Positions 5,342 to 59,713 of a stretch of 64,000 nucleotides of DNA are shown piece after piece. The first letter of the stretch is position 1. Every line of letters starts with the position of its first letter. Under the pieces are notes generated by a model. The model saw nothing but the letters and a program-made list of their open reading frames with translations, made no database searches and was not told the origin of the DNA. Position numbers and translations under genes: made by a program. Source of the stretch: an uncultured Acidobacteriota bacterium (lineage in GTDB: Bacteria > Acidobacteriota > Terriglobia > 20CM-2-55-15); contig CAWIJI010000006.1 in NCBI GenBank assembly GCA_963836435.1, forward strand, positions 62,956 to 126,955. Direction: 5' to 3'.

Positions 5342-5873
5342 GCCCGGAGCGGACTGGTGAATTCGGGCCCGGGTTCATCTGGGTCATCAGGGAGATAACG
5401 CTACCTCACCCGAAATGAATCCAATGTCACCCGAATCAACGCCGCCCGAATCAAACGAATCGCGTGAACGGAGAACCGGGTTTTTGGTGCGGTTATCGGC
5501 TGTTACGTTGAATCCCGTAAGGTTTTCAGCCCACCGCGGAGCGGTGCCACGGGAAAAACCTTGTGGCATTGCCCTCGCCGCTAGCGGAAATCCTGCCACC
5601 GCGGCTGGCTGACAACTGCGGAGGTGACGAATTCCGAATAACTCCGAAGTCCGGCCGGCACAGCATTGGCCTTGAGATGGGCATCGAGAATGGCCGATTG
5701 GACATGGCCGGCGATCGGGATTTCGTTATCCCGAAGACGCTTCGCTACTCGCGATGTAGGTGAGCCACGGGGGGCAGGCAGAACCCGAGCGAAATTTCGG
5801 CAACACGCTGTTGATTATAAACGGCTCCGCGTGTTGCGCCTGATATCGACCGATTCCCAACCCTCCTGCGTTT

Positions 5874-11134: not shown

Positions 11135-11654
11135 TTCCTCGATCGCTTTCCGTCCGGACATATCTTGCCCTCCTCCCGCGTATCCGAATACCCCTTCGTT
11201 AGCCAAAAGTCAATGAGGCTCCTTCGCGGTCCTGGATCGACGGCAGAGCTCTCAAGCAGCAATTGCACGTCGGGGCTTTTGGTTGTGCATCCTAATCACG
11301 ATCTGCGAAACCGCGGTCAATTTCGAGGGTGTACCGCCTAAAACGCGGGGATTGCCGACGCCGAAACGCGCCGGCAATTCTCCGCTCTTCCCTGCCCCCA
11401 CAACCGTTCGTTCAGAAGTGGATCGCCGCAACCGTCTAGCCGCTTGGATCCTTGTCGGACTCAAGGCGTTCTAAAACGGGCTGCGTTTGAGCAGCCGCGC
11501 TTTTCAGCGGCCCGTTCCAGCCGCTTGTTGAACTGCACCCCGGGCCAACTAACCGAAGAACAAGTGCGGGAGTATCTCGGAGAGTATCGACTCTTTTCTT
11601 TGGTTTGACGCCTGGCCGTTACTATGCTGCGGCGGCGCCGGAGAACTAGATGTC

Positions 11655-13216: not shown

Positions 13217-13657
13217 TTATTGACGGCGAACCGGAGCTGGCATATTGTAGATACAACGTATCTCTGCCTCGACAGTCTCCACAACCAAGTCCTCGCTGCG
13301 ATTGACGAATGATCGCGTTTTCGGATCGTAGCCCCCGAGCAGTTCTCCGATCCGGCGGTCTTGAAGGTTCGGGTCTTTTTCATAGTCGGACAGGCGTCCG
13401 CCCGGCAATCGTTCGAGCCGGTCGGTGGCAAAGGGAGGACGGGCCGCGTAACAGAGCAATCGTTCCAAACGAATCCGATCGTTTTGCGGGATAACAATGG
13501 CGGCATGGAGGGTTGAAACCGGCGGCGGCGGCGCACAACGAGAGGATCTCTCTTCGATCGCCTCCGGTTCAATTGCGCCTCCAGCCAGCGTGACGCGCCG
13601 GCCCAGCCCGGAAACGGGACGGCTCCAACGTGTCGCACTCGACGATTCTACAAGCAT
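13217..13657 (-). mobile_element. IS91-family transposase internal fragment
   Basis: The translation (...RVTLAGGAIEPEAIEERSS...NDRIRLERLLCYAARPPFATDRLERLPGGRL...) is near-identical to residues of the 45256..46521 IS91-family transposase. A second frame matches the neighbouring part of the same protein. Confidence 0.6.
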
Positions 13658-16918: not shown

Positions 16919-17515
16919 ATGACGACTCAAATCTTTGCTTCCGGTGTGTTCTTCATCCTTGCCGGGCTTGTCGTTTGGCTGTTCGGCTACGGCATATGGC
17001 GCATTCTGCTGGCTTTGACGGGGGCGGTTTACGGGTTCGTGATTGGAACCACGCTTGTCGAGCCTGTACAAGGACTGCCATCTGTTGTCTTTGGAATCGC
17101 TGGAGCCATCCTTCTGGCGCTGCTTGCGTATTTTCTCTGGAGCGTGGCAGCCCTGATCTATGGAATGTTCCTGGGCGTCGGCCTCGGCGTGTGGGCCGCC
17201 AGGCTCTCGAACGCGCCGGAAAGCACCCAGACGATGACCGTGTTTGTGATCGCCGGTGCGATTGCCGGCATTGTTCTCGCATATTTCCTCAAAGACCAGG
17301 TCATCATGCTGGCAACCGCGCTCTCCGGCGCCGCCGCAATTCTCTATGGCGCACAGATGACAATGCCGGGCGCAGCCCGTCTCACGACCGGCAATAACGC
17401 GGTCCTCGGCTTTTTCATCTGGGTTGTCGGCGGACTCCTTGGTTATGCCATCCAGAACTCGATATTCAATCGACGTCTTACCGGTTCTCTTGGAGGCTAC
17501 CGGCGCGCCGCCTGA
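16919..17515 (+). CDS. integral membrane protein (DUF4203-like, 6-7 TM helices)
   Basis: Hydrophobic helices run from MTTQIFASGVFFILAGLVVWLFGYGIWRILLAL... to the C-terminus. The start is taken at the Met that precedes the first helix. Confidence 0.45.
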   Translation: MTTQIFASGVFFILAGLVVWLFGYGIWRILLALTGAVYGFVIGTTLVEPVQGLPSVVFGIAGAILLALLAYFLWSVAALIYGMFLGVGLGVWAARLSNAPESTQTMTVFVIAGAIAGIVLAYFLKDQVIMLATALSGAAAILYGAQMTMPGAARLTTGNNAVLGFFIWVVGGLLGYAIQNSIFNRRLTGSLGGYRRAA

Positions 17516-17516
17516 T

Positions 17517-17600
17517 GGTTAAGTTGGGGTGCTTTACCCTGAAGGATGGGCTCCGAAGCGGGCCGGGCAGGCCGCTATTTTTCCGGACTGGCGCATCGGC
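17517..17600. repeat. structured about 80-bp repeat family, copy A
   Basis: The core gttaagttggggtgcttcaccc.gaaggatgg.ctccgaagcgggccgggcaggccgctattttccgg.ctgg contains hairpins GGGTGcttCACCC and GGCCgggcaGGCC. Four copies occur in the window. Confidence 0.6.
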
Positions 17601-20700: not shown

Positions 20701-20739
20701 CGGCTTGTAGAAACCGGGATTTCGGTGTCGTATAAGAGC

Positions 20740-20830
20740 GATTACGTTAAGTTGGGGTGCATCACCCTGAAGGATGGTCTCCGAGGCGGGCCGGGCAGGC
20801 CGCTATTTTCCGGGCTGGCGGCCGAACAAC
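20740..20830. repeat. structured repeat family, copy B
   Basis: Same core as copy A, with the upstream extension tgtcgtataagagcgattac shared with copy D. Confidence 0.6.
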
Positions 20831-20854: not shown

Positions 20855-21370
20855 ATCCTGGGAGCCGGAACGACAAAGGCTGTCGCGGCCGACACTGCCA
20901 GAAGGCTGAACAATGGCCCACACGCTCGCATTGGCCAGCAAATTTCCGTCCGCATCACGCACGCGGCCTGAAATCGCCCCGCCACGAACCCACGACAGGG
21001 AGACATCGGCGGCCGGCGGCCGCGGATCGACCGTCACCGTTTGAGTAACGAAGGCCGGATAGACTCCGTTTGAGAGCGCGCCGAAATAACCTTCCAGCTC
21101 CGTCCCGAGGCCGCGGCGGCCTCATGTCGGTGTTCCGCGAGAATTGGCGGATCCAGACACAATGTGGCACGATGTCCCCCACGAAGGAGGGATCTCCCTG
21201 AACTCCAACTCCGGCTCTAATTGCTGAAAGGGTTCCGCCTCACCGAAAAGAATACGCCGTCCCCCAAAGATCGACGGTTCCGTCTGGGCCACTCTATAAC
21301 GGAACACCCGTTATACCGCCCCATCGGTCATACTCTCTCGACACCGCGGTTAAACCGCTTATCCGTCCTA
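20855..21370. repeat. segmental duplication copy 1 (about 510 bp, near-identical to 24233-24745)
   Basis: Aligns base-for-base with 24233-24745 apart from a few mismatches. It contains a CarboxypepD_reg N-terminal remnant (MTVDPRPPAADVSLSWVRGGAISGRVRDADGN). Confidence 0.75.
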
Positions 21371-22994: not shown

Positions 22995-24235
22995 AACACG
23001 ATAAAATCTTAAATGTACTTTCCAAACCGGACAGGCGTGAGTTTGGCGCGGTCGCAACTAACTTCATCATAGAGATCAACTTGTCTAACATCTCATGGAT
23101 CACACTATCCGTGAATTTATTGGTATGGAATGCTCCTCCAACATTTATTGAGCCGTCCCTGAAATCAAGACACAAGATCCTTAAGGGGCGCGGAAACTCA
23201 GGAAGGTGATCAAGCAACCCCATGCGGCTAATGGTTAGATCATTAACTACATCGGGATTCTCGTTCGTCATCAATTCACATGTTACGACCGGGGTTGAGA
23301 ACTCTTGGATAACGTCTGTTTTCGCCGGGTCGACTGCCGTATTATGAGGTCGCTTAGCATACTCCATGGCATCTCTTGAAAAATACTTGCCTCGGATATG
23401 GCATCCTTAACTCGCACGGTAATGTCTCCTAAGGTTTCACGCGATGAAATATCGACTCCCAGGACGCGGAAAGTCGAAAAATCGCCAATCAACAATTCAG
23501 TATGCCTCTGATCGCGATTTGCAAAATAGACGCCAAACGTGGACTCGTGGAATTGCCGACCAAAGATGAAATAGACAGACCGTAGCGGTGGCGAGCACGG
23601 TATACAAAGTCGACTTGTTGCCTGCAATGGCGTTGCGAAGATTCTCGCAGTCGAAGCTTGAAAGTGCTTTCCGTATGACTCTCCCACTCCCATTTCGGTC
23701 TGCTGGTCTTGAATAGAAAGACCGAATCCGGTCGCCCCTACTATGGTCGGTGATCGCCTGATTTCGTTTCGCAGCTGGGCTAGAGGTAGCGCCTCTTGGC
23801 TGATTGAAGGAAACAATATACCGCTTCGGGCCACTTCCGGAATCGATACAATGGGATCAGGATTTTGGAGCGATCGTAACTCAACGATTCTCGCGGCAAG
23901 TGTCTTGATAGTTGGCGTTTTTGAGAATTGCGCCGGGCTCACACTCACGGCAAAGTGTTCTTCCACGAGGTGAAGAAGTTGCGTGAGAAGCAAAGAGTCG
24001 CCCTCAAGTTCCCAGAACCCGTCGTCGCCCCCCAGTTGATCCTTCTTCAGTATTTCTTCCCAGATTCGCGCAAGCTTGAACTCTTCAGGCGTACTACAAG
24101 GTTTGTAGGCCGCATCCAAATTGGGGCGACTCCGACTCTCGGCAGGCAAGGCCGCTGTATTCACCTTGCCATTAAAACCTCGGGGGATCTCGTTCAGAAC
24201 AATGAAGGAAGCGGGAATCATGTGACTTGGAAGTC
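22995..24235 (-). pseudogene. decayed NRPS fragment: adenylation-domain A10 motif, a PCP (thiolation) domain, and condensation-domain pieces
   Basis: A10-like motif LPSHMIPASFIVLNEIPRGFNGKVNTAALP. PCP core DDGFWELEGDSLLLTQL with the Ser attachment site. A C-domain segment FGVYFANRDQRHTELLIGDFSTFRVLGVDIS...ASIFQEMPWSML. The C-domain C-terminus (HTNKFTDSVIHEMLDKL) lies in another frame, so the gene has internal deletions and frameshifts. Confidence 0.55.
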
Positions 24236-24745
24236 TGGGAGCCGGAACGACAAAGGCTGTCGCGGCCGACACTGCCAGAAGGCTGAACAATGGCCCACAC
24301 GCTCGCATTGGCCAGCAATTTCCGTCCGCATCACGCACGCGGCCTGAAATCGCCCCGCCACGAACCCACGACAGGGAGACATCGGCGGCCGGCGGCCGCG
24401 GATGGACCGTCACCGTTTGAGTAACGAAGGCCGGATAGACTCCGTTTGAGAGCGCGCCGAAATAACCTTCCAGTTCCGTCCCGAGGCCGCGGCGGCCTCA
24501 TGTCGGTGTTCCGCGAGAATTGGCGGATCCAGACACAATGTCGCACGATGTCCCCCACGAAGGAGGGATCTCCCTGAACTCCAACTCCGGCTCTAATTGC
24601 TGAAAGGGTTCCGCCTCACCGAAAAGAATACGCCGTCCCCCAAAGATCGACGGTTCCGTCTGGGCCACTCTATAACGGAACACCCGTTATACCGCCCCAT
24701 CGGTCATACTCTCGACACCGCGGTTAAACCGCTTAGACATCGGCC
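24233..24745. repeat. segmental duplication copy 2 (see 20855-21370)
   Basis: Near-identical to 20855-21370. Here its CarboxypepD remnant is fused in-frame to the NRPS fragment. Confidence 0.75.
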
Positions 24746-25326: not shown

Positions 25327-25823
25327 GCGAACTCCTCCAACGTGCCTCCATGTTTGACGATCCGATCCACCAGCGAAGGGAATTGATTCGAAGCAATTGC
25401 CTGACGCAGCAGTTGACGATTCTTCTGTGGCGCCTTCACAGCCTTGCTGACCAGCGCCGACTCGGGATCTAGAACTTCGACTGTCAGGTGTGGAAGGTCC
25501 ATCAATAACAAAAACTTGGCGCCATCCGGAATCCAGATGAGATGACTGTCCTCGTCATAGACAAGCCCGTCGTTTCTCAAGAGCACCTTCAATTCTTCTT
25601 TGACCAGGTAATCCATGACGAGCTCTGCATCAACGTCTACGGTTTGCGTCAAGGCGAGAGAAACCGACTCCTGAACCAGCAAACTAATTTGCCCGAGAAG
25701 CCGAATCCTTGACTTCGGCAAAGGAACCAATCCGTCCATCCGCAGTTTGTGGTTCATCGCCTCGATTCGAGCATCCAAGGCTTGAAACAGTGAAAGAAAG
25801 CGGTCCCTGTGCGACTCCATCAT
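25323..25823 (-). CDS. hypothetical protein (possible nucleotidyltransferase-fold), first gene of a two-gene module
   Basis: A 166-aa protein with a ...LTQTVDVDAELVMDYLV... segment that is weakly reminiscent of minimal nucleotidyltransferase motifs. No confident family assignment. Confidence 0.35.
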   Translation of the reverse strand: MMESHRDRFLSLFQALDARIEAMNHKLRMDGLVPLPKSRIRLLGQISLLVQESVSLALTQTVDVDAELVMDYLVKEELKVLLRNDGLVYDEDSHLIWIPDGAKFLLLMDLPHLTVEVLDPESALVSKAVKAPQKNRQLLRQAIASNQFPSLVDRIVKHGGTLEEFA

Positions 25824-25966
25824 TTAAGTCATTGCATTTAAACATATTTAAATCGTACATACAATGACTATTTTGGGAAAATCGCAGTCGGGTGAATTCG
25901 ATGGGGACGCCCCAAAGACCTCGAAGACGCCTGCGATGTCCTGCGGTCCAGGGGGACGATCTCGAA

Positions 25967-36939: not shown

Positions 36940-38367
36940 CTAAAATCCTTTCGACTCGCCGGGTGCGAGTTCGATCGCGGTTTGCTCACAATCGGCCGCG
37001 GAGAGCCAGCGTGGACTAAGATCCGTTGCGGATTTTTTCGTGAAGCAATACCGGCCGGGCGTGAGGCCCTCGAAGCGAAACTCCGGCGAGCCTGGAAACA
37101 CGGCCTGCACCGGCGCTTCACGACCCGGAGTCACGTCACGCAGCAGGATCACGTTCGCGCCTCGAGCGTCGCCATGAATCATGCCGGGCGGCTGAAATCC
37201 CAGGATCACGCGCTGCGGAGGAACGTTGCCCCGCATATCGAACAGGGGCTCGGTCACGCCCGTGCATCCGCCGCTCGTGCTTTGCGCGCTGACGGCGAAC
37301 AACGTCGGTCCGACGTTCTCGATGCGCGTGGGAGCCTGCTGCGTAGCAATGTGCGCGATGATCTTCTGATCGCGGACGAGCGGCCAGAATCCGAGAGACT
37401 GAAGCGTCAGGGTCCCGTCCGGGGAGCAGCCGGCATGGGGGCTGTCTGGTGCCACCACGAACTCCACGGTACGCCCCGGTTGCAGTCGAATATCCAGGTT
37501 CTCGACGTTCTGGCCATGCAGATCCAGGTGCACGTGTTCAAAGAACGACGGCGGCATGACCGGCCCTGATGCGTACAACTCGTAGGCGCCGGGTTGGAAG
37601 TTATCCAGCTTGAAGGCGCCGTCTGCAGCCGTCAGCGTGAGTTGCGCCCGGACTGACGGATAGTCCGAGGGCGTGATCGTCAGGGTGTAAGTCTGCTGGC
37701 CCGCCGGCGAAGAGATCCTGCCGCTGATCGTGGACGTTCCTTGAGGCTGCACGACAAAGTCAGGAACGTCGTATTGCTCACCCCCGGCGATTTCAAACTC
37801 GCGAGGCCGTGCGTTGGCCGGATAGAGCGCGAATCCGCGGGCCACGCCCGGAAGTGTATTCGCACTGATGAACGGCGCGGACAGCACGTAACGGCCGGGA
37901 GGAATGCCGTAGACACGGAAGTCGCCGGCCGCGTCGATCATTCCCGAATAGGTGCGCGGGATCCGATGCAGCGGCACCTGTTCAATGACGAGCACGGCGC
38001 CGCCGTTTCGGGGAGGGGTGATGTGTCCGGCGATAACGCCGTATTTGACGAGACGCAAAACGGGAATTGCCGTTGAAGCCTGGGTCGCCGTCATAGCCGC
38101 GTCCAGGCTCGCGTAGTTTGCCTTGGTGATGCTGACCCGATAGACGCCGGCAGCGACGTCCAGGAATTCGAAACCGCCGCTTCGGCCGGTTTGCGTTTCC
38201 TTCACGGTGACTCCGGCGGCGGTCTTCAATCGCACGGACGCTGCGAGCACCGCGGCGTCCGAGTGGTCTTCGAGAACTGTGCCGCGAAGCACTTCAGCGC
38301 GCGCGACTCCGGTCCAGGTGGTCAGGAAACTCAGGGCCAATAGACATCGGGCGTTCACGGTTTTCAA
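36940..38367 (-). CDS. secreted CarboxypepD_reg-like domain protein (tandem with 35310..36935)
   Basis: Signal peptide MKTVNARCLLALSFLTTWTGVARA and CarboxypepD_reg modules (LRGTVLEDHSDAAVLAASVRLKT...). Confidence 0.7.
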   Translation of the reverse strand: MKTVNARCLLALSFLTTWTGVARAEVLRGTVLEDHSDAAVLAASVRLKTAAGVTVKETQTGRSGGFEFLDVAAGVYRVSITKANYASLDAAMTATQASTAIPVLRLVKYGVIAGHITPPRNGGAVLVIEQVPLHRIPRTYSGMIDAAGDFRVYGIPPGRYVLSAPFISANTLPGVARGFALYPANARPREFEIAGGEQYDVPDFVVQPQGTSTISGRISSPAGQQTYTLTITPSDYPSVRAQLTLTAADGAFKLDNFQPGAYELYASGPVMPPSFFEHVHLDLHGQNVENLDIRLQPGRTVEFVVAPDSPHAGCSPDGTLTLQSLGFWPLVRDQKIIAHIATQQAPTRIENVGPTLFAVSAQSTSGGCTGVTEPLFDMRGNVPPQRVILGFQPPGMIHGDARGANVILLRDVTPGREAPVQAVFPGSPEFRFEGLTPGRYCFTKKSATDLSPRWLSAADCEQTAIELAPGESKGF

Positions 38368-38747
38368 ACACTATAACCGCCAGCCGGGATCCTGCAATGT
38401 TATTTTTATAACGGATGTGTTGTCACGCCGCTGCTTAACTCGGTTTACCTTTCACCGCCCGCAATCCCCCAGATCCGGCGCCGCGATGGCACCCTCCGAA
38501 CATCCTGAGCCTCGGGAGTAAGTGTCGCATAAAGCAGAACGTTTTTAGCGTAGCGACGCGGCGAGTCAAGATCAGCATGGAAAGCTCCTTTGCGAATTGG
38601 AATTTGCTGCGATCAGCAGCCTCCATGGTTTCGCAAGGAACTTGTACGAGGAAGAACTCCGTTAGATTCTCATGACGCGGGAAACTGGCAGGCCCATCGA
38701 CAACCCATCGGCCAGCAACCTACCGCAGCAGCGGTTTAGTCCAAGAG

Positions 38748-38830
38748 CGATTACGTTAAGTTGGGGTGCTTCACCCTTGAAGGATGGTCTCCGAAGCGGG
38801 CCGGGCAGGCCGCTATTTTCCGGGCTGGGC
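38748..38830. repeat. structured repeat family, copy C
   Basis: Same core as copies A, B and D. Confidence 0.6.
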
Positions 38831-39722: not shown

Positions 39723-39768
39723 GACAAGGTGAGTAAGGCCCGGGGAGTTTCACCCCGAGCCTCTCGCA

Positions 39769-39802
39769 GAACCGTACTTGAACGTCTCCGCTCATACGGC
39801 TC
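39769..39802 (-). ncRNA. group II intron catalytic domain V
   Basis: The minus-strand sequence is GAGCCGTATGAGCGGAGACGTTCAAGTACGGTTC. It matches the group II domain-V consensus GAGCCGUAUG...CGUACGGUUC, including the AGC triad and the bulged stem. Confidence 0.55.
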
Positions 39803-40787
39803 CCGCCATGGAACCTCTCCGCACGCCCATAGTCCAATGGGCAAACACCTGCGGAGCGCGCCGTGAAATTCGGGCGATCCAATGTGCGGCGCGCCGCTTG
39901 TGACGGCGCAGTTTCTTGTATTTCCGTGACGCCCAGCGCGTCAACGCGCGGTCCAGCGTGCGCATGGACGGATACATTGCCGAGCGGTAGTACCGCCCGT
40001 AGTACTGGAGCCAACCTCGAACGATCGGGTTAAACATCCGGGAGAGATCTTCGATGGACTTATCACTGCATCTGGCCAGGTGCCAGCTCCGAATCTCCGA
40101 CCGTATGGCTTTCGCGGCTTTGTTTGAAACCGCCGGCGTGAAATTGATGAAGAACTTTCCCGCTCCAGTATCCAGTTCACTCGCTTGCTCGCGATTCCCA
40201 CGCTTAACGCATCCAGCGCTCGATGGAAATTTCTTCCGGGACGAAACCCATAGGAGAATCCCGGAAACTCGGCCTCGTAGATTTCGTTGAGGATTGACGC
40301 CACTGCCTGTTGAACAAAATTTGTCCGCCAGTGCAGCAATGCCAATCGGACGTTTCCGTCCGTCCGGCTTTGGGATGTAAATTCTCAGTGAGGATTGTGC
40401 CCGCTAGGCTCCGCGATGCACTCGGCCGTGTAGATCCTTCAAGCGATCTTCCACTCCTTTTTCGTACTCCCTCCACGTCATCTCATCGACTCCCGCGGCT
40501 GCTGTCTTCTTCAGATGCAGAAAACTGCTCCGCAGCAAATCGACCGTCAGGTGGTGGAGTAGGCTCGTGAACCGTTCCTGCTTCTTTTCCTTTGCAGTAC
40601 GGCGCACACGTTGAAGCCCCGTTGACACGTCTTTGTCCCCGCTCGGCGTCGTGGACGTGTGTTGCTCCATCATGTTCTCCTTGTTCGGCGGCCTTCCCTC
40701 CGGACTTCTCCTCCCGTGCTTCATGCCACGTTCGTTCGAATCCTTCATCGGTACTACGCCGCTGTCCGACTCCTCGCCTCCGTTCAT
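39792..40787 (-). pseudogene. group II intron-encoded RT/maturase (IEP), nonsense- and frameshift-disrupted
   Basis: RT domain 0/1 (40404..40787: ...FTSLLHHLTVDLLRSSFLHLKKTAAAGVDEMTWREY...) ends at an in-frame TAG. RT domains 1-2 (39941..40345: QQAVASILNEIYEAEFPGFSYGFRPGRNFHRALDAL) lie in another frame. Maturase domain X (39792..40037: ...IVRGWLQYYGRYY...) is in a third frame. RT domains 3-7 are missing. Confidence 0.6.
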
Positions 40788-41173
40788 GTCCGTCGTGCGG
40801 CCTTGGCCTTCACGGACCGGCCTGATCTCTCAGGCGGCGACGAGGCCTCCCGGTTCTCGTGCATGTTGTTTCTTTGCGTGCGCGGGGTCTACGACTACGG
40901 AGGACTCGACCGACGCTCGCTTAGCGCGCCAGCCAATGGTGCCTTCTCCCTCAGCCTAAAAGATCGGCGTCCCCAATTGGGTTTTCGAAGCTCAATACCC
41001 GGCCCGCAAATGCCTCTGTCTACGCTTCAGTTCTGGCCTCGCGGCCAGCGCTGCAAGACTCAAGGTCAGGATGGTTTGCTACTCCTTTCCTGTAGGACTC
41101 TTTCATTCCCTACAAGATGCCGGTTTATCCCGGCGCACAGGCTGTCCCCAGAACTCCAACTTGAACTGGGAAC

Positions 41174-44513: not shown

Positions 44514-45092
44514 ATGCAGAACGAAGTTCAACCACTGTCCCCGACCCCTCTTTCGGCCTTGGTTGAGGCGGGACGGAGTGAGGGCGAGCATAGCGAGACC
44601 GAGCGGAGTGCCGCCTCAACCAAAGCCGGCGCCGACGCGGCCGGCGTGGCCCGGCCCGATCCGGAGGTCGTCGCGAAAGCAAAGCGGCGGCGATTCACCG
44701 CCAAGTACAAGCAGCAGGTTTTGGCAAAGGCCGACGCGGCGGCGTCTGACCCTGGCGCCATCGGAGCGCTGTTGCGGCGCGAGAGACTCTACTCCTCGCA
44801 CCTGGTAGCGTGGCGTCGACAACGGGACGCCAGCACTCGACAAGGCCTCGAGCCCCGGAGACGCGGCCCGAAGCCGAAGCGGAATCCCATGGCTGAACAA
44901 ACGGGGGATTTGATCGGAAAAATCCGCGTCATGAAGGTTAGGGTGATGGTCGCGATGGCGATCACGGTCGGCCTTCGCCGCGGAGAATTGATCGGCCTTT
45001 GTTGGAGGCATCTCGACCTGAACATAGGAGTTTTAAGAGACCGGTCGGGCGTATGCTCCGATGCGCGATCCCGGGTTTTCAGTGTCGTATAA
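44514..45092 (+). mobile_element. composite remnant: IS3-family OrfA-like transposase N-terminal fragment fused to a tyrosine-integrase fragment
   Basis: ...PDPEVVAKAKRRRFTAKYKQQVLAKADAAASDPGAIGALLRRERLYSSHLVAWRRQRDAS... is IS3/IS911 OrfA-like. The tail ...ITVGLRRGELIGLCWRHLDLNIGVLRDRSG... resembles a tyrosine-recombinase catalytic-domain segment and runs into the 55-bp direct repeat. Confidence 0.5.
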
Positions 45093-45094
45093 GA

Positions 45095-45180
45095 GCGATT
45101 ACGTTAAGTTGGGGTGCTTCACCCGGAAGGATGGTCTCCGAAGCGGGCCGGGCAGGCCACTATTTTCCGGGCTGGCGGCG
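45095..45180. repeat. structured repeat family, copy D (immediately 3' of the IS91 tnpA stop)
   Basis: Same core as copies A-C. It sits between the integrase fragment and the IS91 transposase stop at 45256, so it may be the IS91 oriIS-side terminus. Confidence 0.55.
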
Positions 45181-45255: not shown

Positions 45256-46521
45256 TCAGGCCCAGTCGAAAGTGCTGGCGAGGTCGGCGCTGCGCGCCGC
45301 GGGAGCGAGCGGCGGCGGTCGGCAGGGCAAGCCGAGGTGGTCAAGAATCTTCCGGGTGGCGGCCGGCGGATGGATCGGGGAAATCAGGCGCAGCTTGCCG
45401 CCGCATTTTCCGCAGACGGTCGCATCCGCTGCGAACACGCGTTGGATCAATTCGGCCCAAGTATGATTCTTCCGTTTTCTTGCTTCTTTCCCGGACTCCG
45501 GGGCGCCAGGTGTTTCCTTGTCGGGGGACCTCGCTTCCGAAGGAGCGGATTTGGCCTCCTCAAAAGAAAGTGTGGCCGCGGTCGTCTCCGAACTGGATTC
45601 GGCGGCAGGCACGATCTGGGCCCGCCATTTCGCGGCGGGGCCAAGCACGCCGGAGAACCGAATCAAATGAGCGCGGGGCGTGGGGATCAGCGCCGCAAGA
45701 CGTTCAATAAATTCCAGCGGGGTAAATACGGCGTGCGTCGTGCCGTCACGCCACGGCGTCTTCAGGCGGTAGCAGAGGCGTCCGTCCGGCAATCGTTCGA
45801 GCCGGTCGGTGGCAAAGGGAGGACGGGCCGCGTAACGGAGCAATCGCTCCAAACGAATCCGATTGTTTTGCGGGACAACAACGGCGGCATGGAGGTTGAA
45901 ACCGTCGACGGCGGCGCACAGCGGAGAGGATCTCTCTTCGATCGCCTCCGGTTCAATTGCGCCTCCAGCCAGCGTGACGCGCCGGCCGGCGTTCGGGCCG
46001 TCAGCGATCCGGTTCGAGACGGAAGCCGCATAAAGTCCCGCCAGCCAGGGTTGCTCCCGCGACAGCGGGTCTTCTTCACCACAAGATTCTCCGAACCGGC
46101 GCTGGACCAGGGTCGTGATTCGAGAAGCCAGCGTCTCGGTCAGTTGCCGAATTTCGCTGTCCTCAATGCGCCTCAACGGATAAAAACGCGGACGGCCGTC
46201 CACATCCGGAGCATATACCCCATCGATGCAAACCATGTGGATATGAACATTAAGATTGAGGCTCCCTCCATAGCGCTGTACGAACGAGACCGCGCCGCAT
46301 TGCGTTTGATGGATGCCGCACGCCAATATGCCGCATTCGAGGACCCCGCGAAGTTCGAGTTCCACGAATCTGGGCACATCTCTCCCCTTCTCTTTCTGCC
46401 GAGCCAGAAACGTTTCGAGATTCTCCTGAAGCAGGCGGTAGACGAGCGATTGCCCGGGATCACGCGGGCGATACTCTCCGGCCGGATTGTTTCTCGCACC
46501 ACATCCGGCGTGGTTCAACAC
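45256..46521 (-). CDS. IS91-family (rolling-circle, HUH) transposase, possibly internally deleted
   Basis: N-terminal zinc-finger region (...RPRDPGQSLVYRLLQENLETFLARQKE...LECGILACG...). HUH region (LNLNVHIHMVCIDGVY). C-terminal ...HTWAELIQRVFAADATVCGKCGGKLRLISPIHPPAATRKILDHLGLP typical of IS91 TnpA. The 491-aa ORF on the opposite strand is taken as an antisense artefact. Confidence 0.7.
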   Translation of the reverse strand: MLNHAGCGARNNPAGEYRPRDPGQSLVYRLLQENLETFLARQKEKGRDVPRFVELELRGVLECGILACGIHQTQCGAVSFVQRYGGSLNLNVHIHMVCIDGVYAPDVDGRPRFYPLRRIEDSEIRQLTETLASRITTLVQRRFGESCGEEDPLSREQPWLAGLYAASVSNRIADGPNAGRRVTLAGGAIEPEAIEERSSPLCAAVDGFNLHAAVVVPQNNRIRLERLLRYAARPPFATDRLERLPDGRLCYRLKTPWRDGTTHAVFTPLEFIERLAALIPTPRAHLIRFSGVLGPAAKWRAQIVPAAESSSETTAATLSFEEAKSAPSEARSPDKETPGAPESGKEARKRKNHTWAELIQRVFAADATVCGKCGGKLRLISPIHPPAATRKILDHLGLPCRPPPLAPAARSADLASTFDWA

Positions 46522-54973: not shown

Positions 54974-55933
54974 ATGAAGATGTTGCTCAACGTGGTCGGC
55001 AGGATTGCCGTCCTCACCGCATTGTCACCGGTACTATTGGCGCAATGGGCGCCTTTCCCCACGCCAGGTGTTCCCAAATTGGCGAATGGAGAACCGGACC
55101 TGAACGCGCCTGCTCCGCGAACTGCCGACGGTAAACCGGATTTTTCCGGAATCTGGCAGAACGGGCGTGGTGGAGGAGGAGCTCCGCGGGGAGGAAACGC
55201 CGCGGCTCCCAATGGCCCCCGCGGGCAACGTGGCGCTGGCGGCCCCAATGGGCAACGCGGGCAGCGCGGTGCCGGACCGGCCGGGCCCAACGCGCAGCGC
55301 GGTACCGGACCGGCCGCAGCGCCGGCCGAGAGCGGCCCTCCCGCGGCAAGTTTCCCAAATGTCGGTCAGGGATTTCCAGGTGGCCAGCTTCCCTATCAAC
55401 CCTGGGCCGCGGAGCTGGTGGCGAAACGCAAGGCGGATAACAGCAAAGACAATCCGGACGCGCATTGCCTTCCCATGGGCTTCATGCAGTTCCATACGCA
55501 TCCGGAACCGCGGAAAATCCTCCAATTGCCCGGCGAGATTGTCATCATCTATGAAGCGAACAACGGGCTCCGGCAAATATTCACCGACGGGCGCTCCCTC
55601 CCAGGCAAGGATGCCGATCCGTGGTGGTATGGCTACTCGGTCGGAAAGTGGGAGGGCGATACCCTGGTCGTCGAAACCACCGGTTTCCTCGACAGAGAAC
55701 CCGGCTGGCTCGACGTTCAGGGCAGTCCCTTCACCGAGGAAGCGAAAGTGACGGAAAAGTTCCGGCGGCCCAACTTCGGTACGCTAGAAATCGAAGTCAC
55801 GGTGGACGACCCCAAGGCCTACACCAAACCATGGACCGTCAAGGTGACCCAGCGCATCATGCTCGACACCGAACTCATCGAATTCATCTGTGAAGACCGA
55901 GACGCCACGCACTACGTCGGCGCAGCCCAGTAA
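54974..55933 (+). CDS. hypothetical secreted protein with long Gly/Arg/Pro/Asn-rich insert
   Basis: Signal peptide MKMLLNVVGRIAVLTALSPVLLAQ. A roughly 90-aa low-complexity run (NGRGGGGAPRGGNAAAPNGPRGQRGAGGPNGQRGQRGAGPAGPNAQRG...). A folded C-terminal domain follows (...HCLPMGFMQFHTHPEPRKILQLPGEIVIIYE...WWYGYSVGKWEGDTLVVETTGF...). Confidence 0.45.
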   Translation: MKMLLNVVGRIAVLTALSPVLLAQWAPFPTPGVPKLANGEPDLNAPAPRTADGKPDFSGIWQNGRGGGGAPRGGNAAAPNGPRGQRGAGGPNGQRGQRGAGPAGPNAQRGTGPAAAPAESGPPAASFPNVGQGFPGGQLPYQPWAAELVAKRKADNSKDNPDAHCLPMGFMQFHTHPEPRKILQLPGEIVIIYEANNGLRQIFTDGRSLPGKDADPWWYGYSVGKWEGDTLVVETTGFLDREPGWLDVQGSPFTEEAKVTEKFRRPNFGTLEIEVTVDDPKAYTKPWTVKVTQRIMLDTELIEFICEDRDATHYVGAAQ

Positions 55934-55952
55934 CGGGATGAAAGGAGCAGTT

Positions 55953-56363
55953 ATGAGAGCAAGAGCCGTCGTTCTTATCGCAGCGGGAATGGCCATAGCT
56001 TGGTGCGCTGTGCCGGTCATGGCACACCATTCTTTCGCCGCTCAGTACGACCGCAACAAGCCGATCACCCTCGTTGGACCGGTGACAAAAGTCGACTGGA
56101 TCAATCCACACGCCCGAATCTTCATGGATGCGAAAGACGCCAGCGGCAACACCGCCAACTGGGAAATCGAACTGGCCGCGCCGGCGATGCTGATCCGGCG
56201 CGGCTGGTCGAAAAGTGCCGTAAAGGTTGGAGAGGTGGTGACCGTCAATGCCTCCCTCGCCAAGGACGGCTCCAGACTTGCCAACGCCAGTACCGTGACG
56301 CTGGCCAATGGGAAACGCGTTTTCGCAGGGTCCTCCGGCGACGACGGCAGTGCGACACCATGA
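55953..56363 (+). CDS. DUF6152-family secreted protein
   Basis: Signal peptide then HHSFAAQYDRNKPITLVGPVTKVDWINPHARIFMDAKDASGNTANWEIELAAPAMLIRRGWSK... (HHSF...W.NPH motif). It lies 20 nt downstream of the previous gene, so it is probably co-transcribed. Confidence 0.5.
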   Translation: MRARAVVLIAAGMAIAWCAVPVMAHHSFAAQYDRNKPITLVGPVTKVDWINPHARIFMDAKDASGNTANWEIELAAPAMLIRRGWSKSAVKVGEVVTVNASLAKDGSRLANASTVTLANGKRVFAGSSGDDGSATP

Positions 56364-56395
56364 AGACCGCCTGTACTGCAAGTGTTTCCTGACCT

Positions 56396-56436
56396 TTGTA
56401 TTCATAAATTATTGATTATTAAAATGTTAAAGTCAT
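56396..56436 (+). promoter_or_regulatory. AT-rich promoter-like leader upstream of the repeat array
   Basis: TTGTAT at 56396-56401, a 17-18 nt spacer, then TTAAAAT at 56419-56425. This sits in a roughly 60-bp stretch of about 25% GC inside a roughly 63% GC region. Confidence 0.3.
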
Positions 56437-56448
56437 TTTTAGAAGCGA

Positions 56449-56960
56449 ATGGGGGTGCGAGGAATCCCTGCACCCCTGCCGGGGTGCAAACCTCTCCGTT
56501 ACGGTAACCCCGGGTTGCGCTCGCTTCGCTCGCTTAACCCGGGGCTAAATTCTCAGCACGCCTCCGGCGTGCTCTGGAGTTTGGACCGAAGTTTAGACAT
56601 TTTCCACGCCGGAGGCGTGAAAGGAATTTAGCCCCGGTGGAGCGCAGCGACACCCGGGGTTCATCTCACCAGCGGCTTGCACCCCGGAGGGGACCCCTGC
56701 CGGGGTGCAACATTCCCGTTACGGTAACCGAAGTTTAGACATTTTCCACGCCGGAGGCGTGAAAGGAATTTAGCCCCGGGTGGAGCGCAGCGACACCCGG
56801 GGTTCATCTCACCAGCGGCTTGCACCCCGGCAGGGGTGCGAGGAATCCCTGCACCCCGGAGGGGACCCCTGCCGGGGTGCAACATTCCCGTTACGGTAAC
56901 CCCGGGTTGCGCCCGCTTCGCTCGCTTAACCCGGGGCTAAATTCTCAGCACGCTCCGGCG
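56449..56960. repeat. about 510-bp intergenic array of nested direct and inverted repeats (non-CRISPR)
   Basis: Unit S (ccgggttgcgc.cgcttcgctcgcttaacccggggctaaattctcagcacgc.tccggcgtg) occurs twice (56502.., 56901..). Unit T (gaagtttagacattttccacgccggaggcgtgaaaggaatttagccccgg.tggagcgcagcgacacccggggttcatctcaccagcggcttgcaccccgg) occurs twice in tandem (56581.., 56730..) and contains an inverted copy of S. Unit R (ccctgccggggtgcaa..t.cccgttacggtaacc) occurs three times. There are no unique spacers. Confidence 0.6.
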
Positions 56961-57019
56961 TGCGATCCGATCGATTGGCGCTGGTGGCGAATCCCCTCCC
57001 CCGATCCTCACCCGGGCCT

Positions 57020-59713
57020 TTAATCCCCTTTTGGTCCGGCCTTCTTCAGTTCGGCGGACCAGTTGAGCACGATGTCGATCTCGTTGGCGGGTCGAGCGGA
57101 TTCAGCGGGCTGGACCATCAGAAAACGTTTGCCGTCTGCAGTAACGTCGTAGCCGGACACCGTGGTGCCGCTGAACTTGTACTTTCCTTCGAAGAGCAAT
57201 CGCGGCAGGGTCGCCGAAAAGTCGGCGGTGGCGGAAATTCCCACCGCCATCATCCTGTCGTTGTTCCTGTAGAACAATTCGTCGCGAGACCATACGGGCT
57301 CGGTCCCGCCGTCGGTGGAAATCTTCCACTTGCCATCGAGCTTCGGAAACGGCCGGACGTAGACTTCTTCGCTGCCCGACTCCGTGGAAACGTACGCAAG
57401 CCATCGGCCGTCACGCGAGATGTGAGGATTCCATTCTCGATAAACCGTGTTCAGGAGCGGCTCGATATTGTGTACGCCTTCCATGGACAGCAGCAGGATA
57501 TCCGTACTGGTCTTGGAGTCCGAAGCCGTAAAGGCGAACAGCCTTCCGTCGGGCGAGAAGGCGCCGGGCGTCTGCAGGCCGTCGCCCATGCTTAATCGCT
57601 CTTCGTCCCTGCTGCCATCGGCCATCCTCTGAAAGATGTTGCGAAAGCCCTTGCGCGTCCCGCGATACACAACGCGTGTTCCATCGGGCGTCCACATGGG
57701 CGCCTGGCTGCTGCCGCTCGAGGTCAGGGGAGTCAACGTCGGCCGCGCCAGATCGAAAATCCACGCGCTGAACGAAGGGCCCGCGATGCTGATGGCGAAA
57801 CGCCGGCCATCCGGAGATAGTACCGGCTCCTGGTAGTCCCGAAGGGGTGCCGACAATGGCTCGATGACGCCGTGCCGGTCCACCCAAACCAGACGGGACT
57901 CGTACCATTCGGGGCTGCTCGGGGTGTAGATGAGCGCGCCGGAATCTGAAAGCGCGAATTCCCCGCCCTCGCTCGTGTCCCGAACCCGTGGAGTGAGTGC
58001 CACTGGCGGGCCTCCGGCAAGTTGCAGGCGATCCAGGTCAAAAGGCGCCGCCAACAAAGAATCGGTGCCCTGACGGTAATAGACCAGGTGACCGCTTTCC
58101 TGGTCGTACCGCCCGTTGCGCGACCCGTGAACGACGGACCGCCGCTCGCCCGTCACCAGATTCACCACTTGCAGTTCTGTTTCTTCCCAACCCGGACCTG
58201 TCCAAACCGTGAACAGTACAGCCCTGGCTCCAGGCAAAACCTGCGGCCAGCGGTGGCTCACTTCGCCTTTATCACGGTCCAGGGTTGTAATTTGCTGCGG
58301 CGTTCCTCCCGCAGCAGAAACTTTCGACAAGCCGGAAGTGTTGAGGGGCGCAAAATAAATAACGTCGTCCGCAGACCAGCTCCCACCCGTTCCACGCGCA
58401 GCATCACACACCGTCTCCACCGCTCCGCCGGTTACAGGGGATTTCTTCAACTTCCCCTGAGCAAAGAACGCAACCCACTGCCCGCTGGGGGAAAAAAAAG
58501 GAAGGGAGGCGCCTTCGGATCCCGTGACCAGCTTCGGCTCCGGGTTGTCCATTGCCCGGAGATACAGCTGGGCAGAACTTCCCGGGCGTGCGCTCACATA
58601 CGCCAGGAGTCTGCCATCCGGAGACAGCGCGGCCGGAGGACCCGGGAAACTGTCCAGCTCGTCTCCGGGCGGCAGGGTGACACTCAACTGAACCAGCTCG
58701 GCTTGCGGTGCTGACGCGTTGGGCTTGAGTGTCCACACCGCGGCCGCACCGATGAGGATCGCGAGTAATGCGATCGTCGCCGCAAGTTCGAGGGATATCC
58801 CTTGCCGCCGTCTCTGTGTGACGAGCCTGGCCTCATGAGGGTCGTTCGAGGCGCCTGGTTCAGCGTCCGCCACCCACTTGAGCTCGCGATACAAATCCCG
58901 CGACGATTGCCAGCGTTCTTCCGGGTCCTTGGCCAGACACGTTGCGATGATACGATCGAGCGATTGTGGCGCCACCGGCAGGACTTCTCTGATGGGCCTG
59001 GGCGTGTCCTTCAAAATCGCGCTCATCAGGCTGACGGAACTCTTCCCCTCAAACGCCTTCTTTCCGGTTACCATTTCGTACAGCGTCGCGCCGAATGCGA
59101 ACAGATCTGTGCGCGCGTCTGCTTCTCGGCCTTCCAGCTGTTCGGGCGCCATATACTGCAGACTGCCGATGATCACTCCCTCCGCCGTCACATCGTGCCG
59201 CGTCGGTGCTTGAGAAAGCGTGGAAGGATCCTTGTTCCCCCGCAGCTTGGCCAGACCGAAATCAAGCAGCTTCACTCCGTTGCCGGTAATCATGATGTTT
59301 CCCGGCTTCAGATCCCGATGGGTCACGCCGCTTCGATGAGCCTTGTCGAGCGCGTCCGCAATCGCCATCGCATATTTCAGCGCCCGATCCAGCGGCAGCG
59401 GCCCCCGTTCAAGCTGTCGCGCCACCGTCTCGCCTTCGATGAGCTCCATCACGAGGAAGTCGATCTGGCCGCTGCAACCGACGTCATAGACCACGCAAAT
59501 GTTCGGATGGTTGAGGGAGGCGATAGTCTGCGTTTCGCGTTCAAACCGCGCGCGTGCATCCGGTCTTCCCGATACGTCCTCCCGCAGCACCTTCACGGCA
59601 ACGGTGCGGTTCAGCCGCGGATCCCTGGCTTTGTACACTTCTCCCATCCCGCCTGAGCCAATCAGTTCGATGATTTCGTAGTGACCTAAGCGGGTTCCGG
59701 GCGTCAATGACAC
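57020..59713 (-). CDS. serine/threonine protein kinase with TM helix and C-terminal TolB-like (PD40/WD40) beta-propeller
   Basis: Hanks kinase motifs (GSGGMGEVYKA, VAVKVL, HRDLKPGNIMI, DFGLAK, APE). One TM helix (ATIALLAILIGAAAVWTL). Repeated SPDG(R/T) PD40-type blades. Confidence 0.85.
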   Translation of the reverse strand: MSLTPGTRLGHYEIIELIGSGGMGEVYKARDPRLNRTVAVKVLREDVSGRPDARARFERETQTIASLNHPNICVVYDVGCSGQIDFLVMELIEGETVARQLERGPLPLDRALKYAMAIADALDKAHRSGVTHRDLKPGNIMITGNGVKLLDFGLAKLRGNKDPSTLSQAPTRHDVTAEGVIIGSLQYMAPEQLEGREADARTDLFAFGATLYEMVTGKKAFEGKSSVSLMSAILKDTPRPIREVLPVAPQSLDRIIATCLAKDPEERWQSSRDLYRELKWVADAEPGASNDPHEARLVTQRRRQGISLELAATIALLAILIGAAAVWTLKPNASAPQAELVQLSVTLPPGDELDSFPGPPAALSPDGRLLAYVSARPGSSAQLYLRAMDNPEPKLVTGSEGASLPFFSPSGQWVAFFAQGKLKKSPVTGGAVETVCDAARGTGGSWSADDVIYFAPLNTSGLSKVSAAGGTPQQITTLDRDKGEVSHRWPQVLPGARAVLFTVWTGPGWEETELQVVNLVTGERRSVVHGSRNGRYDQESGHLVYYRQGTDSLLAAPFDLDRLQLAGGPPVALTPRVRDTSEGGEFALSDSGALIYTPSSPEWYESRLVWVDRHGVIEPLSAPLRDYQEPVLSPDGRRFAISIAGPSFSAWIFDLARPTLTPLTSSGSSQAPMWTPDGTRVVYRGTRKGFRNIFQRMADGSRDEERLSMGDGLQTPGAFSPDGRLFAFTASDSKTSTDILLLSMEGVHNIEPLLNTVYREWNPHISRDGRWLAYVSTESGSEEVYVRPFPKLDGKWKISTDGGTEPVWSRDELFYRNNDRMMAVGISATADFSATLPRLLFEGKYKFSGTTVSGYDVTADGKRFLMVQPAESARPANEIDIVLNWSAELKKAGPKGD

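Follow-up and report, generated by a model that had tools for sequence, protein, structure and literature searches.

A probable pile-up of REP-like repeats related to Acido-Lenti-1 between convergent genes of an acidobacterial genome

What does a dense lattice of direct and inverted repeats in the gap between two genes represent: a gene for a structured RNA, a transcriptional insulator, or an accumulation of mobile DNA? We asked this of one locus in an uncultured Acidobacteriota bacterium, within a 64-kb window, the 64,000-nt stretch of contig CAWIJI010000006.1 (assembly GCA_963836435.1) that was analyzed as a whole. The repeat lattice occupies window positions 56452-56968 (517 bp), in the intergenic 3'-3' gap between the stop codons (56363 and 57020) of two convergent genes, one for a DUF6152 protein and one for a protein kinase. 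An earlier sequence-only reading of this DNA had wavered between hairpins driven by a strong promoter, as a small RNA (sRNA) or attenuator, and a stack of mobile elements resembling repetitive extragenic palindromic (REP) sequences or miniature inverted-repeat transposable elements (MITEs). The evidence favors the latter, since the family is dispersed, forms inverted dimers and is missing from orthologous DUF6152 loci. We put at roughly 65% the probability that the lattice is a pile-up, similar to REP sequences and bacterial interspersed mosaic elements (BIMEs), of a dispersed extragenic repeat that resembles REPs and REP doublets forming hairpins (REPINs) and that falls in the Acido-Lenti-1 superfamily.

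Three-hairpin units in alternating orientation

The lattice is a mosaic of direct and inverted repeats, far above chance, and it lies where nested repeats had been noted before, with edges now refined to 56452-56968. Repeat finding recovered five direct-repeat families of 32-73 nt at 91-100% identity: 73 nt (56489-56561 and 56881-56953, 95%), 61 nt (56632-56692 and 56775-56835, 95%), 53 nt (56585-56637 and 56727-56779, 100%), 52 nt (56678-56729 and 56850-56901, 100%) and 32 nt (56452-56483 and 56833-56864, 91%). There are 19 inverted pairs, and their longest gapless arms measure 44 nt (84%), 41 nt (85%) and 33 nt (88%); near-perfect hairpins of ~60 bp, as first described, overstate this pairing. 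The short palindromes described at the same time are present, with two copies of CACGCCGGAGGCGTG (56605 and 56747) and a variant, CACGCCTCCGGCGTG (56557). Across the 64-kb window, probes of 18-33 nt that derive from the repeat units match inside the lattice only, and shuffles expect 0 matches. Both strands fold far more stably than their shuffles (-323 kcal/mol, z = -12.0; -320 kcal/mol, z = -13.4).

These repeats resolve into four and a half copies of a ~100-nt, three-hairpin unit, which together make up the 517 nt in the order G1(+), H1(-), truncated G(+), H2(-), G2(+). The two subtypes, G and H, are ~70% identical to each other; the repeats S and T of the sequence-only reading are two subtypes of a single family. 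In the orientation of the Rfam model for the related Acido-Lenti-1 motif, hairpin H1 reads GCACCCC-UGCC/UCC-GGGGUGC and is followed by a ~15-nt linker. Hairpin H2 pairs AACCCCGGGU...ACCCGGGGCUAA and carries an insertion of 13 nt (H subtype) or 23 nt (G subtype) that extends the stem. AUUC and 4 further nt then lead to hairpin H3, CACGCC-UCC-GGCGUG.

To score the units we used a covariance model (CM R1) built from alignment A1, which holds 11 copies from 5 sources and has 23 invariant columns. Unit G1 (56464-56577, + strand) is a full copy of the long-H2 subtype, is aligned in A1 and in the larger alignment A2, and scores 89.6 bits (E ~1e-17). It forms a tail-to-tail dimer with unit H1 (56599-56702, - strand; 75.8 bits), a full copy of the short-H2 subtype. 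The spacer between them contains linker module e, ACCGAAGTTTAGACATTTTC (56585-56604), which lies within the 53-nt exact repeat. The truncated G unit (56693-56729, + strand) retains hairpin H1 and the linker only, belongs to the 52-nt exact repeat and gives a weak CM match at 56685-56767 (19.7 bits). Unit H2 (56741-56845, - strand; 90.1 bits) is full and near-identical to unit H1. Unit G2 (56857-56968, + strand; 83.3 bits) is full, 95% identical to G1, shares the 73-nt repeat and has a 1-nt deletion in hairpin H3. With filters off, CM R1 found no unit in the 64-kb window beyond these four full copies and one partial copy; a weak match at 37405-37490, within a coding open reading frame (ORF) and without the unit motifs, was rejected.

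The junctions record how the lattice grew. Module a, GGGGTGCGAGGAATCCCTGCACCCC, is a head-to-head junction whose first copy (56452-56476) recurs as a 25-nt exact repeat at 56833-56857, where it joins units H2(-) and G2(+). In the first copy, the relic of a truncated (-) unit (reverse complement TTCCTCGCACCCC) makes up the left half, while the right half belongs to unit G1, as the 5' arm of its hairpin H1. At 56452 the lattice therefore opens with a truncated unit adjoining an AT-rich segment, with no defined 5' end. Further in, Tandem Repeats Finder (TRF) reports a period of 143 nt x 2.0 at 56585-56869 (score 363), with direct repeats at 142/143-nt spacing. The duplicated segment is 56585-56726, and the junction, GGTAACC / GAAGTTT, falls at an ACC microhomology: the truncated G unit ends at GGTAACC precisely where a second copy of module e begins and opens the second copy of the 53-nt exact repeat (56727-56779). 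The second duplication copy differs by a ~30-nt insertion (module a) and a 1-nt indel. Because blocks of 52-53 nt are still 100% identical, the duplication is recent.

Could this layout be an artefact of a metagenome-assembled genome (MAG), with unit order or copy number mis-assembled? For an independent comparison we used the Logan short-read assembly of run ERR11718635, from the same organism, in which the flanking genes are 100% identical: contig L001 carries an identical copy of the DUF6152 gene and contig L042 one of the kinase gene. Neither contig crosses the lattice. L001 stops at 56468 and L042 at ~56927, inside a 40-nt exact G1/G2 repeat, as expected for a k-mer graph, so internal order and copy number derive from the window assembly alone. 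Both outer junctions, the flanks and the outermost units are confirmed by the independent assembly, the same unit types and G/H dimer are present in unrelated contigs, and the copies differ by discrete indels instead of being collapsed. We consider mis-assembly highly improbable, and at worst it would make the tandem copy number wrong and leave the nature of the element unchanged.

Several other identities were considered and rejected. The sequence-only reading had already set aside a CRISPR array, and the layout agrees: regular spacers are missing, the units alternate in orientation, and the would-be spacers are themselves repeated. Three lattice ORFs (60, 74 and 67 aa) have no Pfam match at E <= 1 and are built from repeat units. 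Integron attC sites carry the R''/R' consensus RYYYAAC...GTTRRRY; judged by eye only, it is absent from the hairpin feet. The conserved core had 0 matches in 2.9 million viral contigs, which argues against a viral origin, and plasmid sequences gave no blastn match to the element. An Rfam E-value scan of 55500-57800 returned chance-level matches only, no tRNA or tmRNA was found, and at Rfam gathering score the whole 64-kb window yielded a group II intron only, 15 kb from the lattice.

Relatives of the unit and Acido-Lenti-1

A loose pattern scan of GTDB genomes gave 4 true homologues among the 16 loci listed. At least four genomes therefore carry homologues, namely MAGs of Thermoanaerobaculia (locus L004), Chthoniobacterales (L010), Verrucomicrobia (L013) and Frigoriglobus (L015), and among the matches listed the units extend beyond the window's lineage to Verrucomicrobiota and Planctomycetota. 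CM R1 raised the count to 30 units at E <= 1e-5, with extra copies in L004 and L013. A specific metagenome scan produced 11 contigs, all 11 with CM R1 units; the units are all that these contigs have in common with the window, with no synteny. A check proposed with the first description asked whether the repeats are dispersed or unique: the 64 kb of the source genome hold one cluster, and dispersal with unrelated flanks is seen only in the genomes and metagenomes of other organisms.

As structures, the hairpins have been conserved in evolution. In alignment A2, which comprises 30 copies found with CM R1, 96.8% of cells are paired and compensatory changes occur in 11 of 16 pairs, with support for all three hairpins. 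None of 500 shuffles reached the observed values, and slid controls paired at no more than 60%. At the family level, then, the term structured nucleic acid is correct. The structured RNA proposed earlier holds as far as a conserved hairpin structure across the family is concerned, and is not supported as a promoter-driven RNA gene.

Inverted pairs of units are the rule. They occur in nine other loci (L004, L010, L013, L015, L020, L021, L023, L025 and L028), with head-to-head spacers of 0-17 nt and tail-to-tail spacers of 33-100 nt. Three of these loci, L020, L023 and L028, come from one sample and share dimer segments of 127-189 nt at 95-96% identity within unrelated flanks. Their alignment, A3, defines the dispersed object as a tail-to-tail H/G dimer of ~310 nt whose ends are inverted H1 hairpins, ATCCTCGCACCCC...GGGGTGCGAGGAT. 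The G1/H1 pair in the window is the same H/G dimer.

Orthologous loci add a further line of evidence. At L029, L032 and L034, which carry orthologues of the DUF6152 gene (~72% aa identity), the gaps downstream measure 16-130 nt and hold no repeat unit, and the genes downstream of the orthologous operons differ from those in the window. Hence, the array is not tied to the DUF6152 operon.

What, then, is the family? Acido-Lenti-1 is a 46-nt motif of two hairpins (Rfam RF01687). It was described from Acidobacteria and Lentisphaerae as 'probably RNA, not cis-regulatory', with no function assigned, and is sometimes found near group II introns (PMC2864571); Rfam lists it as a candidate sRNA. The RF01687 model matches the H2-linker-H3 part of homologous units, their 3' two-thirds, end to end. 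At a gathering threshold of 37 bits, the unit at L010 7715-7759 passes with 39.4 bits. A second L010 unit scores 34.3 bits, the L018 unit 34.8 bits and other units 22.6-31.2 bits, so that eleven units fall at 22.6-34.8 bits. The window copies do not reach the threshold: the best, 56747-56780 on the - strand, scores 13.5 bits (E = 8), a low value because of the insertion in hairpin H2. Although the formal Rfam score is missed, the window units, judged by sequence, belong to the Acido-Lenti-1 superfamily through these intermediates.

The likeness is detailed. Both have an 8-bp hairpin followed by GGCUA(A/C/U), a ~12-nt unpaired linker and a 5-6-bp hairpin with a 3-nt loop. In A2, pairing reaches 99% between columns 65-72 and 102-109, the stem leads into CTA in 27 of 28 units, and hairpin H3 can be recognised, each of its 3 modelled pairs showing compensatory changes. 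Both are found in Acidobacteria and in the Planctomycetes-Verrucomicrobia-Chlamydiae (PVC) group, and both are multi-copy and clustered, in tandem and in alternating orientation, with 4.5 copies in 517 nt in the window. The published seed contains ~60 copies from Lentisphaera araneosa, a dozen from Koribacter versatilis and one or two from Rhodopirellula and Geobacter, often clustered with tandem periods of 69-200 nt or in alternating orientation (PMC2864571 supplementary file 183). There are also two differences in structure. The first Acido-Lenti-1 hairpin has a 4-nt loop (consensus C-UNNC-G), whereas that of the window carries the 13-23-nt insertion; short H2 loops occur only in the L010, L013 and L025 homologues. 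In addition, the unit is ~45 nt longer on the 5' side and includes a third conserved hairpin, H1, outside the Rfam model.

The group II intron in the window lies on the - strand at 39728-39804 and 40885-41101, where the Rfam models Intron_gpII (54 bits) and group-II-D1D4-6 (173 bits) both match with more than their gathering scores. About 1.1 kb separates its D1-D4 and D5-D6 matches, and the surrounding 38-46 kb hold short, fragmentary ORFs only. It sits 15 kb from the lattice; in Lentisphaerae, copies of Acido-Lenti-1 have been noted near group II introns (PMC2864571).

Other repeats and hairpins were seen at or beside loci of the family. Tandem oligonucleotide repeats adjoin units at L004 3640-3730, 3840-3930 and 6260-6300 and in the L013 flanks (GGCGAAAGGCGA..., CTCAATT x4 and GAATGAAGAATG...). 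Spurious miRNA-family matches arise from long, near-perfect hairpins in L004 (6207-6314 and 7106-7214) and L015 (5147-5242). The reverse strand of units at L020 1611-1705, L023 5005-5098 and L025 1018-1089 matches anti-hemB (RF02837) weakly, at 22-28 bits against a gathering score of 49.5, which probably reflects generic GC-rich hairpins. The hairpin CCCGGGGT-G(C/T)AA-ACCCCGGG occurs in four unrelated genomes that the loose pattern scan matched by chance (L002, L008, L012 and L017, the last with a tandem array at ~3370-3600); these are not homologues of the unit by CM (16-19 bits), and the palindrome recurs widely.

Likely folding strand and likeness to REP elements

Which strand folds? Loop composition points to the strand opposite to the Rfam annotation. 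On the Rfam strand, loops of family units have the form U..C in 65 of 85 cases and G..A in 4 of 85; read in reverse, they become GNA triloops and GNNA/GNRA tetraloops closed by C-G. Loops of these types, closed by C-G, stabilise hairpins in RNA and in single-stranded DNA. The published RF01687 seed (70 distinct sequences) reads similarly, with 38 A.C versus 8 G.U non-Watson-Crick stem cells, hence G.U-rich on the reverse strand, and with GNRA loops in 47/70 and GNA loops in 56/70 on that strand. Predicted folds are more stable on the reverse strand in 20 of 28 units (mean 3.4 kcal/mol, p = 0.002). There, the G-subtype insertion of hairpin H2 reads GCGAGCGAAGCGAGC, a GCGAAGC mini-hairpin flanked by tandem G.A. 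In 27 of 28 units, the CUA that follows hairpin H2 turns into [T/G]TAG, a 5' foot to a GC-rich stem of 8 bp: TTAG in 22/28, the window included, and GTAG in 5/28; the seed has NTAG in 44/70 and NCAG in 18/70. It may therefore be that the strand annotated for the family is the wrong one. We also considered UNCG tetraloops on the Rfam strand and rejected them, as the register gives 3-nt UNC loops.

Read this way, the unit shares much with the REP, BIME and REPIN elements of E. coli and Pseudomonas, which are extragenic palindromes (PMC3733652, PMC3116915). The hallmark of GTAG-tagged REPs is a foot of GTAG type, unpaired, below a GC-rich stem (PMC3733652), and the NTAG foot recalls it. Like REPs and BIMEs, the units pair up as inverted dimers, head to head or tail to tail, and build mosaic clusters that contain linker motifs, and their short, uniform head-to-head and variable tail-to-tail spacers follow the rule of thumb for REP dimers (PMC3733652). 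They prefer convergent-gene gaps, and the cluster grew by tandem duplication, as in BIME-2. The foot fits in part: the GTAG-tagged REP superfamily allows GYAG / GYRG degeneracy and not a variable first base (PMC3733652), and the window units carry TTAG, with GTAG in 5/28 units. As for MITEs, the ~310-nt dispersed dimer with ends like terminal inverted repeats, 95-96% identical at unrelated loci, recalls them. MITEs are non-autonomous inverted-repeat elements, Correia/NEMIS being an example. Here, however, no target-site duplication was recognised at L020, L023 or L028, no parent insertion sequence was identified, and the internal hairpins show covariation between phyla, where a MITE in decay should show none.

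A REP-like element would have a transposase partner. A regular-expression search for the HuH-Y1 motif found none in the window or in any unit-bearing locus. Using REP-associated tyrosine transposase (RAYT) sequences from the PMC3733652 supplement as queries, we examined relatives of two RAYT genes. The locus of K. versatilis type (aba1552; L037) is flanked by its own composite REP, GTATCAGG-GCACGGC-TTCC-AGCCGTGC and GGGCTTTAGCCC, and that of Opitutus type (ote2468; L040, in Rariglobus) by canonical GTAGGGCCTGAC...GTCAGGCC REPs. Neither locus has an R1 or RF01687 match; as both carry unrelated REPs, these lineages are not the partner. Class 3 HuH-Y1 enzymes are associated with CnGA-footed hairpins, ~600 copies of them in Solibacter (PMC6006769); that repeat is probably different from Acido-Lenti-1 units, because Solibacter is absent from the Acido-Lenti-1 seed. 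From a rough estimate of position, the seed copies of K. versatilis and R. baltica would not lie beside the Y1 genes named in PMC3733652.

The acidobacterial locus L037 has two Y1_Tnp genes, in the regions 2638-2976 and 4830-5550. The two-hairpin composite REP brackets the complete gene, 5001-5486, with tandem copies (83-84 nt) on its upstream side and an inverted arrangement on its downstream side. This has the clear look of a REPtron whose foot, GTAT, is non-canonical.

Several observations weigh against a REP-like origin. The unit is ~100 nt long with three hairpins, while a canonical REP is one stem-loop of 20-40 nt, and a repeat that is purely selfish would not usually keep its sequence conserved from phylum to phylum. 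No target-site duplication was recognised at the L020, L023 and L028 junctions, and no empty site was demonstrated. No unit was found in ~78 kb of other acidobacterial loci, and copy number in the 64-kb window is low, unlike that of REPs: a single cluster does not support a high copy number in the source genome. The search for a transposase partner came back empty for the two RAYT lineages that it covered. As to the strand, the A.C cells of the seed are dominated by one Lentisphaera lineage, and in our 28 units the base-pair statistics, corrected for two alignment artefacts, favor neither strand, so the call rests on the loops and the Rfam seed.

How might the lattice have arisen as a REP/BIME-like pile-up? 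The unit normally travels as an inverted dimer with H1 hairpins as its outer ends. One such dimer, G1 -> <- H1, would have landed in the gap between the two convergent genes; it was then expanded locally, through the 143-nt tandem duplication at the ACC microhomology and small indels, into the present G1(+), H1(-), truncated G(+), H2(-), G2(+). If loop composition and the NTAG foot are a guide, the functional folding strand would be the reverse complement of the Rfam orientation. On that strand, a unit would present a GNA-loop hairpin, ~10 nt, the [T/G]TAG foot with its 8-bp hairpin, a spacer, and a hairpin with a GNA or GGCA loop. By analogy, this anatomy is of the type recognised by the single-strand-specific HuH/Y1 enzymes of REP systems, and spread may have relied on a HuH/Y1-like enzyme or on recombination. 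Once in place, the cluster would have no promoter of its own and would at most contribute stable hairpins, passively, to the 3' read-through of both convergent genes, where they may form a barrier to exonucleases or to read-through.

Transcription, setting and meaning of the array

Is the array transcribed on its own account? Its left end abuts an AT-rich junction segment (56395-56448) with TTGTAT-18-TAAAAT on the + strand and ATGACT-17-AATAAT on the - strand. The AT-rich stretch noted previously to the left of the lattice is real: 56395-56444 has 14% GC, the lowest of any 50-mer in the 64-kb window. It is no upstream leader, as the earlier layout had it, since tract and lattice both sit in the convergent 3'-3' gap and not upstream of a gene. 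The box itself (56397-56426) is present with an 18-nt spacer. As a promoter it is weak, agreeing with the sigma-70 consensus at 8/12 positions and falling below the threshold of a promoter scan that found no site on the + strand and one on the - strand. A terminator scan of the lattice found neither a terminator-like site nor U-tracts, and no comparable AT-rich, promoter-like flank occurs in 17 other family clusters. Elsewhere in the window, the AT-rich spot at 11642 carries a classical TTGACA / TATAGA-type promoter, and the second most AT-rich spot (25804-25890, 22% GC) holds the palindromic ATTTAAGTCATTGCATTTAAACATATTTAAAT....

A dedicated noncoding RNA would have this AT-rich promoter drive a ~530-nt multi-hairpin RNA rightwards from ~56435, acting in trans, for instance by sponging up a protein or an RNA, or as antisense to the 3' end of the kinase mRNA. 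The extreme composition of the AT-rich 50-mer in a window where promoters look AT-rich, the very stable fold, the covariation of hairpins across phyla and the Rfam listing of the related motif as a candidate sRNA all speak for it. An sRNA gene should have its own promoter and terminator, conserved with the RNA across homologues; what we found is a weak box with an equally good site on the other strand, no terminator, no common flank at any other family locus and a left edge that is a truncated unit. Both orientations occur within one cluster, so that any one transcript would mix sense and antisense units, and orthologous loci lack the array. The loop triplets vary too: the reverse strand has GGA here, while GAA, GUA and GCA are common in the family, which leaves a GGA-specific binder such as CsrA unsupported and led us to reject a CsrB/Rsm-like GGA-loop sponge. 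The strong-promoter sRNA or attenuator first proposed is thus not supported, and we regard a dedicated RNA gene here as improbable.

The setting suggests another role. To the left, the DUF6152 protein gene (55953-56363, + strand; 136 aa; Pfam PF19649, E 7e-30) has its stop codon ending at 56363. To the right lies a gene for an 897-aa Ser/Thr protein kinase with PD40 repeats (57020-59713, - strand; Pfam Pkinase E 6e-46, PD40 E 2e-23), its stop codon (57020-57022) 52 nt from unit G2. A domesticated bidirectional terminator or insulator would prevent collisions between transcription of the DUF6152 operon and that of the kinase gene, and would shield both mRNAs from 3' exonucleases. E. coli REP/BIME elements and conserved terminator hairpins of mycobacteria have been reported as terminators or 3' protectors. 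Beyond the cluster lying between convergent stop codons, crude gene calls (long ORFs filtered by third-position GC) place all family clusters in intergenic DNA, 6 or 7 of ~13 between convergent genes. Several fill the whole gap; those at L015, L023 and L025 leave 6-17 nt up to the stop codon on either side. From whichever direction an inverted dimer is read, the hairpins are the same, and the structure is predicted to be extremely stable. On the other side, the array has no U-tracts or terminator-like site in the scan, other clusters lie in divergent or co-directional gaps (L004 3733-3839, L010, L028 7580-7801), and orthologous loci do without the element. Convergent gaps are also where a selfish repeat does the least harm when it lands, so position by itself is no proof of function. 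Such a role, which is not exclusive of a REP/BIME-like origin, seems to us doubtful, though better placed than an RNA gene.

A broader reading, tentative and about as doubtful as an insulator, would make the whole Acido-Lenti-1 superfamily, including its three-hairpin form, a cross-phylum REPIN-like element of Acidobacteriota, Verrucomicrobiota, Planctomycetota and Lentisphaerota, with its functional strand opposite to that in Rfam. A single-strand-specific enzyme would process it, or it would be co-opted as a conserved RNA hairpin module that works in both directions; recognition would rely on a code made up of the conserved NTAG foot and of hairpins capped by G..A. In the window, the AT-rich segment might additionally drive transcription of the array.

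The window also holds repeats unrelated to the lattice units. A dispersed ~100-nt repeat, CGGTGTCGTATAAGAGCGATTACGTTAAGTTGGGGTGC...GGGCCGGGCAGGCCGCTATTTTCCGGGCTGG, occurs at 17486-17594, 20714-20822, 38732-38828 and 45071-45179 (3-4 copies, 87-100% identity). A ~500-nt duplication (20858-21361 and 24235-24735, 99% identity, spaced 3376 nt) encloses ORFs with CarboxypepD_reg and PP-binding domains, not transposases. A 101-nt repeat has three copies (16097, 33406 and 45440; 89-100%), and a 220-nt repeat has two (13385-13603 and 45769-45987; 90-100%).

Acido-Lenti-1 has stood in Rfam since 2010 as a candidate small RNA without a function. Its motif is the 3' part of a larger three-hairpin unit that ranges over further phyla than previously listed and behaves in REP/REPIN fashion, with inverted dimers, mosaic clusters, convergent-gene gaps and near-identical copies at unrelated loci. 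This locus alone opens no long-standing question to testing. In genome annotation, arrays of this kind are best labelled neither as RNA genes nor as small ORFs; they also account for the places where contigs assembled from short reads break off. To our knowledge, hardly any work has been done on REPs in Acidobacteria or in the PVC group. If the REP/BIME-like reading is true, a family now listed as an orphan 'sRNA' would have to be classed among the repeats, and this would suggest that a mobilising enzyme or a host function is still to be discovered in these bacteria.

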